A DNA stretch of 64,000 nt from Escherichia coli (GTDB lineage: Bacteria; Pseudomonadota; Gammaproteobacteria; Enterobacterales; Enterobacteriaceae), in assembly GCF_003334355.1 (NCBI RefSeq), contig NZ_QOWP01000009.1; one strand, written 5' to 3'. Position numbers and translations under genes: made by a program. Shown one piece after another: positions 19,986-25,703 of this stretch (its first letter is position 1; the number at the start of each line of letters is the position of its first letter). The notes under the pieces are model-generated. The model searched no databases and was not told the origin of the DNA. It was given only the letters and a program-made list of their open reading frames with translations.

Positions 19986-22451
<2,466 letters not shown>

Positions 22452-22465
22452 TTTCACTAATAAAT

Positions 22466-22497
22466 AGAACGGGGCCAAAGGGTCCCGTTTTTTTCGC
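22466..22497 (+). terminator. intrinsic terminator of the glg operon (AACGGGGCCAAAGGGTCCCGTT + T7)
   Basis: Hairpin plus run of 7 T immediately after the glgP stop. Confidence 0.7.
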
Positions 22498-22566
22498 CAT
22501 CATTTCGGAAAAGTGTCCAGAAGGGGCAAGGGGACTCGGGGAGTATAATTTCGCCATTCAGAAAGA

Positions 22567-22983
22567 ATGGAAAGAATAATGCAAAACAGAAAATGGATTT
22601 TGACCTCGCTGGTAATGACTTTTTTCGGCATCCCCATTCTGGCGCAGTTTTTGGCGGCGGTTATTGCCATGCTGGGTGTCGGACTTGCCGGTATTATTGA
22701 AGTTTGTAATATCTTTATCACGCCAACAATTTACCTTCTGCTCAACGTCTTTATGCTGACGCTGGGGGCGATAATAATATTTTTCTCTGGTCGCGTGTGG
22801 GCCGGTGATAGCGCGCCAGAAAACAGAGAAATAGCCGTCTGGCGGCAATGCTTTTTTCTCTTACCCGCGCTATTAACCCTGGTTGGCTGGATAATCACGC
22901 TACATCTGGCAGATTATCAATTTCGCCAGATGGGAGCTGGTTGGTTGGCAAACCTTATGCTTCCCTGGTTGGCGTTTTTTTAG
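22567..22983 (+). CDS. hypothetical small polytopic membrane protein (138 aa, about 4 predicted TM segments)
   Basis: ORF track; strongly hydrophobic helices (ILTSLVMTFFGIPILAQFLAAVIAMLGVGLAGII...); ends at TAG 22981-22983; not recognised as a named family. Confidence 0.5.
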   Translation: MERIMQNRKWILTSLVMTFFGIPILAQFLAAVIAMLGVGLAGIIEVCNIFITPTIYLLLNVFMLTLGAIIIFFSGRVWAGDSAPENREIAVWRQCFFLLPALLTLVGWIITLHLADYQFRQMGAGWLANLMLPWLAFF

Positions 22984-23012
22984 TCTCATTAGTGGGTGGT
23001 GAGTACTGGTGG

Positions 23013-24083
23013 ATGGTCATTATTCCCGTTGGGGCGCATATCAGTTTTTCGCTGGGATACGCCTGGCCGACCAGATATCCTTTATCCGGCACGTCCGGAC
23101 TACGTTGCCGTAACTTACTCCTGTTTCTACTTCTCTTACTTGGTATTGTCGCCGGGTATCAGGCCCATTTATATAAGCAGCAAAATCCTGGTGTCGGTGT
23201 ACGCGAAAATATTGATATCTGGGCCTGGCGACCCGATAAACTCAATAATCGACTGACGCCGCTGCGTGGCAAACCGCAAATTCAGTTTAGGCAAAACTGG
23301 CCGCGAATCGATGGCGCCACGGCTGCGTACCCAATTTATGCTTCTGCATTTTATGCATTAAGTGTAATACCAGAGGATTTTCACGTTTGGGATTATCTGG
23401 AAAACTCTCGTACGCCAGAAGCATATAACAAAATCGTTAAGGGCGATGCTGATATTATTTTCGTGGCGCAACCTTCCGGTGGGCAAAAAAAACGTGCAAA
23501 GGAATCTGGTGTCACTTTGCTGTACACCCCCTTTGCCCGTGAAGCATTCGTTTTCATCGTCAATGCGGATAATCCGGTTAATTCCCTGACTGAACAACAG
23601 GTGCGTGACATTTTCAGTGGTGCAATTACCAATTGGCGTGCTGTTGGCGGTAACGATCAGGAGATCCAGACCTGGCAGCGCCCGGAAGACTCTGGCAGCC
23701 AGACAGTGATGCAATCACAGGTCATGAAAAATGTCCGCATGATCTCGCCGCAGGAAACGAAAGTGGCAAGCGTGATGGAGGGAATGATTAAAGTCGTTGC
23801 CGAATACCGTAATACAAACAACGCAATAGGCTATACCTTCCGCTATTACGCGACGCAAATGAATGCTGATAAAAATATAAAATTGCTAGCGATTAACGGT
23901 ATTACACCGACGGCGGAAAACATTCGCAACGGCAAATATGCGTACATCGTCGATGCATTTATGGTGACGAGAGAAAATACAACGTCAGAAACACAAAAAC
24001 TGGTCGAATGGTTTTTAACGCCGCAGGGGCAGAGTCTGGTAGAAGATGTGGGATATGTGCCGCTGTATCCAACAATGGAATAA
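23013..24083 (+). CDS. PstS-family (phosphate-binding-protein-like, PBP_like_2) periplasmic binding protein with N-terminal hydrophobic anchor; start uncertain (ATG 23013 or GTG 22992)
   Basis: ORF track 22848..24083 (its first ~48 codons overlap the upstream membrane ORF out of frame and are discounted). Motifs DGATAAYPIYASAFYAL, RPEDSGSQ, AIGYTFRYYA, LLAINGITPTAENIRNG parallel PstS GAGATFPAPVY / RADGSGTS / AIGYVEYAYA / PTEENF. Confidence 0.7.
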   Translation: MVIIPVGAHISFSLGYAWPTRYPLSGTSGLRCRNLLLFLLLLLGIVAGYQAHLYKQQNPGVGVRENIDIWAWRPDKLNNRLTPLRGKPQIQFRQNWPRIDGATAAYPIYASAFYALSVIPEDFHVWDYLENSRTPEAYNKIVKGDADIIFVAQPSGGQKKRAKESGVTLLYTPFAREAFVFIVNADNPVNSLTEQQVRDIFSGAITNWRAVGGNDQEIQTWQRPEDSGSQTVMQSQVMKNVRMISPQETKVASVMEGMIKVVAEYRNTNNAIGYTFRYYATQMNADKNIKLLAINGITPTAENIRNGKYAYIVDAFMVTRENTTSETQKLVEWFLTPQGQSLVEDVGYVPLYPTME

Positions 24084-24108: not shown

Positions 24109-25101
24109 ATGAATAAATTCACCGGTGTTTTACTATTAGGCACGGCGTTACTGGCGGGATGTGTCGACCGGGAAGGGTACTATAACAGCGTTAGGGAAGA
24201 AGAGAGCCATGGACTGACGTCTCTGCGGGGGCAACCTGCATTACGTTACAGCGATGATTGGTCAAGATGGCCGAGAGTGTACGGCGCTACAGCCTTATAC
24301 CCGCTGTATGCCTCCGCGTATTATAAATTAGTACCCGAGCCAAAAGATAAGGATCGAACCTCGCTGGCCTGGCAGGCGTATGGTTTGCAGCAAACCCGAA
24401 CAGCTGAAGCCTACGATAGTCTGATTAAAGGTTCCGCGACGGTTATTTTTGTTGCACAACCGTCGGAAGGACAGAAAAAACGTGCAGAAGAAGCGGGTGT
24501 TAAACTGAAATATACCGCTTTCGCCCGCGAAGCCTTTGTCTTTATCGTTGATATTAATAACCCGGTAAATTCTCTCTCTGAGCACCAGGTTAAAGATATT
24601 TTTAGCGGCAAAACTAGCCGCTGGAATAAAGTAGGTGGTAGTGACGAACATATAAAAGTCTGGCAGCGCCCTGAAGATTCTGGAAGCCAAACGATTATGA
24701 AGGGGTTGGTTATGCAAGACACCCCAATGCTGCCAGCTAAAAAATCCACTGTGATTGATCTTATGGGCGGTTTAATTACTGAAGTTGCCGACTATCAAAA
24801 CACGCCATCTTCCATTGGGTACACCTTCCACTATTACGTCACTCGTATGAATGACAATATGCTCAAAATGCGCAAGCAGATTAAACTTTTGGCTATAAAT
24901 GGCGTTGCGCCTACCGAGGAAAATATCCGCAACGGCACTTATCCATACATTGTGGATGCCTATATGGTGACGCGTGAAAATCCCACGCCGGAAACGCAGA
25001 AATTTGTTGACTGGTTTATAAGTCAGCAGGGGCAACAGTTGGTAGAGGATGTGGGGTATGTGCCGCTGTATGAAGCATCCCCCGAATCATCAGGACAATA
25101 A
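24109..25101 (+). CDS. PstS-family binding-protein paralog, predicted lipoprotein (330 aa)
   Basis: ORF track 24046..25101; ATG at 24109 gives MNKFTGVLLLGTALLAGC (lipobox LAGC); roughly 60% identical by eye to the upstream paralog across the mature domain. Confidence 0.75.
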   Translation: MNKFTGVLLLGTALLAGCVDREGYYNSVREEESHGLTSLRGQPALRYSDDWSRWPRVYGATALYPLYASAYYKLVPEPKDKDRTSLAWQAYGLQQTRTAEAYDSLIKGSATVIFVAQPSEGQKKRAEEAGVKLKYTAFAREAFVFIVDINNPVNSLSEHQVKDIFSGKTSRWNKVGGSDEHIKVWQRPEDSGSQTIMKGLVMQDTPMLPAKKSTVIDLMGGLITEVADYQNTPSSIGYTFHYYVTRMNDNMLKMRKQIKLLAINGVAPTEENIRNGTYPYIVDAYMVTRENPTPETQKFVDWFISQQGQQLVEDVGYVPLYEASPESSGQ

Positions 25102-25388
25102 TGATGAATATAATCAGACTTTATATTTATCCGTTATTTCTCGGCTTTGTTATTGTGCCGTTGTTGGTGTGGCCGATGGTGGTTGCGCTGGCTGCTTGTA
25201 TTATCACGCTGAGTTTTCTGGGGGAAATGCTGTTCTCAATCCCGCTCATGATCAGGCGTATTTCACTTCTGCAATTACAACTTTGGTTATCGGCTGAATA
25301 TGCGCTTTTCTTCTGTGTAATGTGTTGCGTTGGTTGGCAATTTACTCGTAGAACTCAATCTGAATTGAAAAGCAGGCTCCATTGTTGA
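25101..25388 (+). CDS. hypothetical small membrane protein (95 aa); may be the N-terminal part of a gene interrupted by an in-frame stop
   Basis: ORF track; ATG overlaps the stop of the preceding gene (TAATG); hydrophobic helices. Confidence 0.4.
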   Translation: MMNIIRLYIYPLFLGFVIVPLLVWPMVVALAACIITLSFLGEMLFSIPLMIRRISLLQLQLWLSAEYALFFCVMCCVGWQFTRRTQSELKSRLHC

Positions 25389-25703
25389 TTGGTATTCGCA
25401 CCGATCTATTTATGGTTGATCCTCTGGAATATCATTTTTTACATCGCGCCAGCGAAAATTGCGTTGCTGGAAAGTATCCGCAATTTCTTTCTGCTTGTTG
25501 TCTGGCTACCCCTGAATTTTTCGCCATTTTGGCCTCAGCCGTGGACGGATTTTATCGGTCCAATAAGCGCACAGCTTGGTTTTGCGTTGGGATATTATTG
25601 CCAGTGGTGCAGCAAAAATAGATGCCAGATACGGAAGTTGAGTGAGTGGGGAACGTGCTTAAGTTTTGTTACGTTGGGTATGATGGCGTGGGCTTTGCGG
25701 TAA
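25389..25703 (+). CDS. hypothetical small membrane protein (104 aa); same frame as 25101..25388, separated from it by a single stop codon
   Basis: ORF track; both ORFs are in frame 0 and contiguous, so one stop codon splits a roughly 199-codon membrane-protein reading frame. Confidence 0.4.
   Translation: MVFAPIYLWLILWNIIFYIAPAKIALLESIRNFFLLVVWLPLNFSPFWPQPWTDFIGPISAQLGFALGYYCQWCSKNRCQIRKLSEWGTCLSFVTLGMMAWALR

Follow-up and report, generated by a model that had tools for sequence, protein, structure and literature searches.

Some sigma-70 promoters have no −35 hexamer and depend on an activator, among them the PhoB-dependent pstS promoter and promoters of the MalT-dependent malP type. A −10 box accompanied neither by a −35 hexamer nor by the TGn of an extended −10 generally makes a poor promoter when unaided. 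Within the −10 box itself, it is on positions 1, 2, 3 and 6 that region 2 of the sigma-70 family depends most.

We analysed a stretch of 64,000 nucleotides of Escherichia coli DNA (contig NZ_QOWP01000009.1), called the window below, in which a TATAAT hexamer lies between glgP and a gene encoding a membrane-anchored PstS-like protein. Because its position is conserved across four genera, the hexamer very probably serves that gene as the −10 box of an ordinary promoter. Taken by itself, this would be one more bacterial promoter, previously uncharacterised and of a known kind.

Predicted promoter elements downstream of the glgP terminator

The elements found between glgP and the start of the downstream gene (gene 1) are the following.

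22466..22494, + strand: intrinsic terminator of glgP, a hairpin (22466-22491) running into a T7 run (22488-22494), identified by folding and conservation
22503..22512, + strand: upstream block TTTCGGAAAA, of the form TTTCnGA(A/T)AA, predicted to span −53..−44; candidate site for an activator or for alpha-CTD (UP-like)
22513..22543, + strand: G-rich spacer over the −35 region, unconserved except for G22520 (invariant) and for G22524 and G22526 (at least 90% conserved)
22544..22549, + strand: −10 hexamer TATAAT, predicted to span −12..−7; 6/6 match to consensus, with T22544, A22545, T22546 and T22549 invariant
22555..22558, + strand: predicted transcription start, A22556 being 7 nt past the hexamer, as placed by the standard −10-to-start spacing
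22579..22581, + strand: start codon conserved across genera, an ATG invariant in 14 sequences and the annotated start of K-12 yzgL

The first-pass annotation of this DNA had placed a consensus −10 hexamer near 22544-22549, just 3′ of the glgP terminator. Both statements hold: the stretch reads GGAGTATAATTTCGCC, with TATAAT at 22544-22549 on the + strand, and the hairpin and T7 run that follow glgP (20004..22451, + strand) end at 22494, with the hexamer beyond. The hairpin folds at −17.1 kcal/mol (z = −3.5), a stability that 200 shuffled sequences all failed to reach. Since it leads into the T7 run, the hexamer sits just past a canonical intrinsic terminator, starting 50 nt after the T run. The terminator stem is kept in Escherichia and Klebsiella while its loop is variable, and in E. 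albertii a T-to-C change in the stem converts a G-U pair into a G-C pair. No entry for the glgP 3′ end was found in the one Term-seq table searched (PMC7815308).

The bare hexamer is not enriched in the window, where 17 copies were counted on both strands against 22 +/− 4.5 expected from shuffled sequences, and taken alone it is therefore weak evidence. On the sense strand of the 115-nt intergenic region, 0.02 to 0.04 copies are expected, a rarity that is suggestive, not compelling. What lifts the hexamer above chance is its conservation across genera, described below.

The first-pass annotation had also noted the lack of a good −35 hexamer, and we found the same: TTGACA is matched at 3/6 positions at most, with a spacer of 15 nt, and at only 0 to 1/6 with spacers of 16 to 18 nt. 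No TTGACA-like sequence was present 16 to 18 nt 5′ of the −10 in any genus aligned. As far as the aligned sequences go, the missing −35 is thus a conserved trait of the promoter, not a flaw of the copy in the window. An extended −10 was not found either, positions −15/−14 being GA in the window and TGn occurring in none of the 14 aligned sequences. TATAAT at 22544-22549 was not called by a consensus promoter scan. The only + strand promoter that the scan proposed, TCGCCA-18-AATAAT at 22551-22580, was discarded, its −10 overlapping the conserved start codon.

The predicted start A22556 corresponds to position 3564028 of the K-12 chromosome (NC_000913.3, − strand) and to about 4367456 in EDL933 (NZ_CP008957.1, − strand); the predicted 5′ untranslated region up to ATG 22579 measures about 23 nt. 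A distance of about 18 bp had been given from the hexamer to the first ATG, in good agreement with the 17 nt that we measured to ATG 22567. That ATG had been taken as the start of the open reading frame, a choice that the comparison overturns, as the start conserved across genera is ATG 22579, which puts the hexamer 29 nt from the real start. ATG 22567 is found only in Escherichia, in frame and 12 nt 5′ of ATG 22579; the Klebsiella ATG aligned to it runs into a stop after 3 codons. RefSeq places the start of gene 1 in an ATCC 8739 derivative (L001 1677, equivalent to 22576) at an ATA codon, which is ATG in O157.

Gene 1 and the variable module downstream

Three genes make up the module that follows the promoter region in the window.

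22579..24083, + strand: gene 1, with an N-terminal multi-pass membrane domain and a PBP_like_2 (PstS-family) domain, about 500 aa if intact
24109..25101, + strand: gene 2, PstS-family lipoprotein-like, 330 aa, with an LAGC lipobox
25101..25703, + strand: gene 3, hypothetical membrane protein of 200 aa, interrupted by a TGA at 25386-25388

The gene next to the hexamer had been described as a membrane open reading frame of 138 aa (22567..22983). This frame proved to be merely the front of a gene of about 500 aa that is split in the window: a 1-bp deletion at 22971 (GG versus GGG) separates gene 1 into open reading frames 22567..22983 and 22848..24083, and in the nearest genome an extra G at this position joins the two into a protein of 502-505 aa. 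Exact matches to the surrounding 61 nt are absent from all 5,426 complete E. coli genomes, so that the deletion is shared by none of them; the best matches to these 61 nt are 98.4% identical, which corresponds to one gap. Either the mutation is private to this strain or the assembly is wrong at this position. The gene model is improved accordingly, with a start at 22579 and one gene of about 500 aa, and the small membrane open reading frame disappears.

Gene 3 carries a comparable lesion. The TGA at 25386-25388, which is TGG in the nearest genome, divides it into open reading frames of 95 and 104 aa, and a second G-to-A change, at 25404, 16 nt past this TGA, replaces Val by Ile. No other genome was found with the gene 3 alleles at 25386-25388 and 25404. 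Two private inactivating changes in one small operon suggest that its function was lost in this strain, or that the sequence contains errors.

The product of gene 1 matches Pfam PF12849 (PBP_like_2) over residues 247-485 with E = 2e-29. It scores 122 bits against NCBIfam TIGR02136, for which the curated cut-off is 206.6, so that, on these matches, it is a PstS protein in the broad sense only, a family-level relative. In K-12, yzgL (b3427) is the 5′ remnant of gene 1, the rest of the module having been deleted. The K-12 locus resembles that of the window in its promoter, where 87 nt align at 97.7% identity and hexamer, upstream block and ATG are all preserved, and differs in that a gene stub is all that remains of the module.

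The gap between glgP and glpD is a variable hotspot, in which gene 1 is kept and the cargo differs (loci L005, L006, L016-L019 and L022-L026). Here the cargo consists of the second PstS-like gene and the gene for the 200-aa protein; in other E. coli it encodes hypothetical proteins of 236, 255 and 201 aa, and in Klebsiella and Salmonella DUF4279 and YbbD_head genes are found. At one Klebsiella sp. locus, no fewer than three complete TM-PstS paralogues stand in tandem, and an uncalled open reading frame (L025 4011-5081) resembles a fourth TM-PstS paralogue. Eight module proteins submitted to PADLOC gave no match to a defence system. The sequence past glgP in E. coli HH97 (L007) consists of long A/G-rich runs of low complexity with fragmentary fimbrial gene calls, and looks more like an assembly artefact than like a genuine alternative locus.

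For K-12 yzgL, no curated promoter or mapped start was found, and our search of the literature with yzgL, b3427 and the locus tags returned incidental mentions alone. The accessible portions of the Cappable-seq (PMC4782308), SMRT-Cappable-seq (PMC6131387) and in vitro ROSE (PMC10301672) data hold no entry for a K-12 start near the predicted position. In EDL933, the accessible portion of the Cappable-seq data (PMC10469882) places a start at 4365869 (− strand), inside gene 2, under most conditions, and further starts inside gene 3, at 4364842 and 4364848. Position 4365869 is equivalent to about 24142 in the window, 33 nt inside gene 2, and the sequence TACTAT (24131-24136) lies 5 nt 5′ of it. 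From these EDL933 entries, the module may therefore have internal promoters. For this region the portion comprises the starts located 3′ of annotated start codons and those compared with K-12, and lists none for gene 1; since glpD, which does have starts in that study, is likewise missing among the canonical starts, the lack of a gene 1 entry carries no information. An array signal of −2.0 for yzgL upon NlpE overproduction (Cpx pathway) in K-12 (PMC2639726) is consistent with transcription of the K-12 stub. In Salmonella, STM3527, a putative member of the homologous module, is among the genes co-regulated with SPI-2 (PMC2731931).

Conservation of the hexamer and of an upstream block

Conservation was examined among close relatives in an alignment of the glgP-to-gene junction comprising 12 Escherichia sequences, which took in seven E. 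coli lineages, two cryptic-clade genomes, E. albertii and E. whittamii. The stretch GGAGTATAATT is invariant in all 12. Just 5′ of it, positions 22523-22541 show many substitutions, and a 1-bp indel in one sequence; further upstream, TTTCGGAAAAGTGTCCAG (22503-22520) is nearly invariant. Of the 5,426 complete E. coli genomes, 4,637 contain an 87-nt promoter segment (1,835 of them at an identity of at least 99%), with variable cargo behind it; the full 3.5-kb module occurs in only 883 genomes. Over these 3.5 kb, the window is 99.9% identical to the ATCC 8739 derivative. A promoter region that hardly differs from that of K-12 yzgL stands on a 477-nt contig labelled Terrisporobacter mayombei (L013, coverage 0.78); E. 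coli DNA has almost certainly contaminated that assembly.

Homologues of the gene 1 protein, at about 50% identity, occur in Klebsiella, Salmonella, Phytobacter, Intestinirhabdus and other genera, and eleven such loci outside Escherichia were compared. The arrangement TTTCnGA(A/T)AA-N30(+/−1)-TAT(A/C)(A/C)T precedes the first gene in a K. oxytoca-like genome, in Phytobacter and at four Salmonella loci. A cross-genus alignment was then built from 14 sequences of four genera (Escherichia, Klebsiella, Salmonella and Phytobacter), 8 of them from Escherichia. Hexamer positions 1, 2, 3 and 6 (TATnnT; −12, −11, −10 and −7) are invariant in this alignment, including the A−11 and T−7 typical of sigma-70 promoters; at positions 4 and 5 either A or C is found, A22547 being at least 90% conserved. 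The variants of the −10 in other genera are TATACT, which is that of the Klebsiella and Salmonella versions, and TATCAT; TATAAT is also found in Phytobacter. The other invariant intergenic columns are the TTT at 22503-22505, A22512, G22520 and two A's in the leader. Four of the six hexamer columns are invariant, against 11 of 80 intergenic columns (hypergeometric P = 2.7e-3 for at least 4 of 6, a value that ignores the phylogenetic non-independence of a sample in which 8 of 14 sequences are from Escherichia).

In the upstream block, besides the invariant TTT and A22512, positions 22508-22511 are at least 90% conserved among the 14 sequences. The distance between block and −10 is fixed at 30 +/− 1 nt in Escherichia, Klebsiella, Salmonella and Phytobacter. 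In Intestinirhabdus a similar block lies just 18 nt from its TATACT, so this spacing is not universal. While the first-pass annotation had rightly seen that the −35 is lacking, it had missed this conserved block at the predicted positions −53..−44.

The two blocks do not depend on glgP as a neighbour. At Salmonella locus L017 both precede the gene and the 5′ neighbour is an Fe-ADH gene; at locus L022 both precede it as well, behind a 174-aa open reading frame followed by an unrelated gap of 185 nt. In the tandem arrays of L018, L022 and L024, the paralogues further along have no copy of the motif. Given these differing 5′ contexts and the lack of copies at later paralogues, the promoter appears, from sequence comparison, to travel with the first gene. 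In the stretch 3501-3580 of L017, the GTG called as start of the 517-aa Salmonella homologue lies 5′ of the conserved −10, so that the gene as called includes its own promoter; about 57 nt further 3′ comes the conserved ATG.

These comparisons bear on two explanations in which TATAAT does not act as a promoter for the module. According to one, the hexamer arose by chance or is a relic, and expression of the module relies on glg transcripts that pass a leaky terminator. In most genomes gene 1 does lie on the same strand as glgP, only about 125 nt further on; TATAAT is not enriched in the window and has no −35, and the start-site data covered contain no start for gene 1. We nevertheless regard this explanation as very unlikely: the terminator is strong and conserved, the positions critical for a −10 are invariant across genera whereas the adjoining spacer is variable, and the two blocks precede the gene also where its neighbour is not glgP. 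The proposal of the first-pass annotation that the module has its own promoter thus gains from the conservation, the terminator and the contexts without glgP; these remain compatible with some read-through from glgP, and the gene model that came with the proposal was wrong.

According to the other explanation, the blocks act in RNA, as a processing site or an sRNA target within a glgP read-through transcript, and not as promoter DNA. One computational study lists yzgL among the predicted targets of OmrA (PMC6127932), as would suit such a role. RNAalifold applied to the cross-genus alignment returned 0 conserved pairs, and no Rfam family matched 22300-23100. Moreover, TATnnT, in which positions 4 and 5 vary, follows the way a −10 is recognised, and the blocks also occur behind genes other than glgP. 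We hold an action at the RNA level to be highly improbable.

A search for the block sequence TTTCnGA(A/T)AA in the 64-kb window gave only two places (three strand matches). Besides the block itself, the window's only other TTTCnGAAAA, at 56842-56882 and on both strands, is intergenic and is followed after 25 nt by a GATAAT and after about 70 nt by a 574-aa open reading frame starting at 56913. It is probably a coincidence, its spacing being unlike that of the site studied here. In the upstream block, the arms TTTC-n-GAAA make up a short inverted repeat whose centre varies. No pho box (two CTGTCAT repeats, 4 nt apart) was found within 3 mismatches in 22480-22545, nor a CRP site (TGTGA-N6-TCACA) within 3 mismatches in 22463-22704. 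The sequence TGTCCA at 22514-22519 is specific to Escherichia. Nine further motifs, those of CpxR, GlpR, Cra, MalT, CsgD, marbox, sigma-E, sigma-32 and sigma-54, were compared informally, by eye; none fits the block across genera.

Proposed mechanism and known promoter classes

A −10 without −35 or TGn is weak, the absence of a −35 is conserved, and the distance to the block is fixed; the promoter is therefore most likely, as read from these alignments, assisted from the block at −53..−44. From the sequence we infer that transcription proceeds from this site, which sigma factor is used, and what the upstream block does. In the mechanism that we propose, transcription of glgP would mostly end at the hairpin and T7 run (22466-22494). 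RNA polymerase holoenzyme would then bind the −10 and initiate about 7 nt past the hexamer, near A22556, so that about 23 nt of leader would precede the conserved ATG 22579. Having neither a −35 nor an extended −10, the promoter would depend on the TTTCnGA(A/T)AA block, which may be the binding site of an activator or a UP-like contact for the alpha subunit (alpha-CTD). Against the proposal speak the weakness of a −10 that has neither −35 nor TGn, the unusually G-rich spacer, the lack of a match between the block and the regulator motifs tried, and the different spacing in Intestinirhabdus. We consider it probable that the account is right as a whole, namely a −10 of the sigma-70 family, initiation around A22556 and a −35-less promoter leaning on the block.

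It might instead be that the −10 is real and belongs to a weak constitutive promoter that needs no activator, the block serving some other purpose or providing the usual kind of A/T-rich UP-like contact. In favour of this, Escherichia and Phytobacter have a −10 that matches the consensus perfectly, the block is A/T-rich and falls within the zone of UP elements (−53..−44), and no known regulator motif was found there (pho box and CRP site searched). Such a promoter is nonetheless improbable here, as the block fits the UP consensus only in part, its invariant TTT and its GAAA arm, around a variable centre, resemble the operator of a protein, and promoters lacking both −35 and TGn are generally poor when unaided.

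Returning to assistance from the block, we can put forward, as a tentative suggestion, that it is the operator of an unrecognised activator for the family of membrane-anchored PstS-like proteins encoded at the glgP-glpD hotspot of Enterobacteriaceae. This activator might, equally speculatively, serve a family whose genes often stand in tandem arrays, with DUF4279 or YbbD_head genes as partners. The block would then offer a handle on the regulator, and subsequently on the function, of a widespread and uncharacterised family. In addition, a promoter at this site would make glgP the last gene of the glg operon and the adjoining variable module a separate transcription unit, and it would explain a transcribed yzgL stub retained by K-12.

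Compared with known classes, the promoter has features in common with those dependent on sigma-S, which tolerate a missing −35, and the orthologous promoters of Klebsiella and Salmonella carry TATACT, a −10 preferred by sigma-S. This raises the question of whether the promoter is read by the RpoS holoenzyme instead of that of sigma-70, which would make the module one of stationary phase or stress, as would suit the adjoining glycogen genes, themselves tied to stationary phase. The diagnostic C at −13 is absent, however, with G in its place in Escherichia and T in the other genera, and the window has the sigma-70 consensus TATAAT; we judge reading by sigma-S to be unlikely.

The sigma-70-family promoter that we favour also recalls extended −10 promoters, which work without a −35 hexamer, and differs from them by the GA at −15/−14 and by the lack of TGn in all 14 sequences. 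From activator-dependent promoters without a −35 it is set apart by the absence, in 22480-22545, of a pho box or CRP site within 3 mismatches and of a MalT box as judged by eye, and by the position of the block, which at −53..−44 lies off the −35 region. Like them, it combines a good −10 with a conserved element placed at a fixed distance upstream and has no −35 that can be recognised; with the PhoB-dependent pstS promoter in particular, it also shares a downstream gene of the PstS family.
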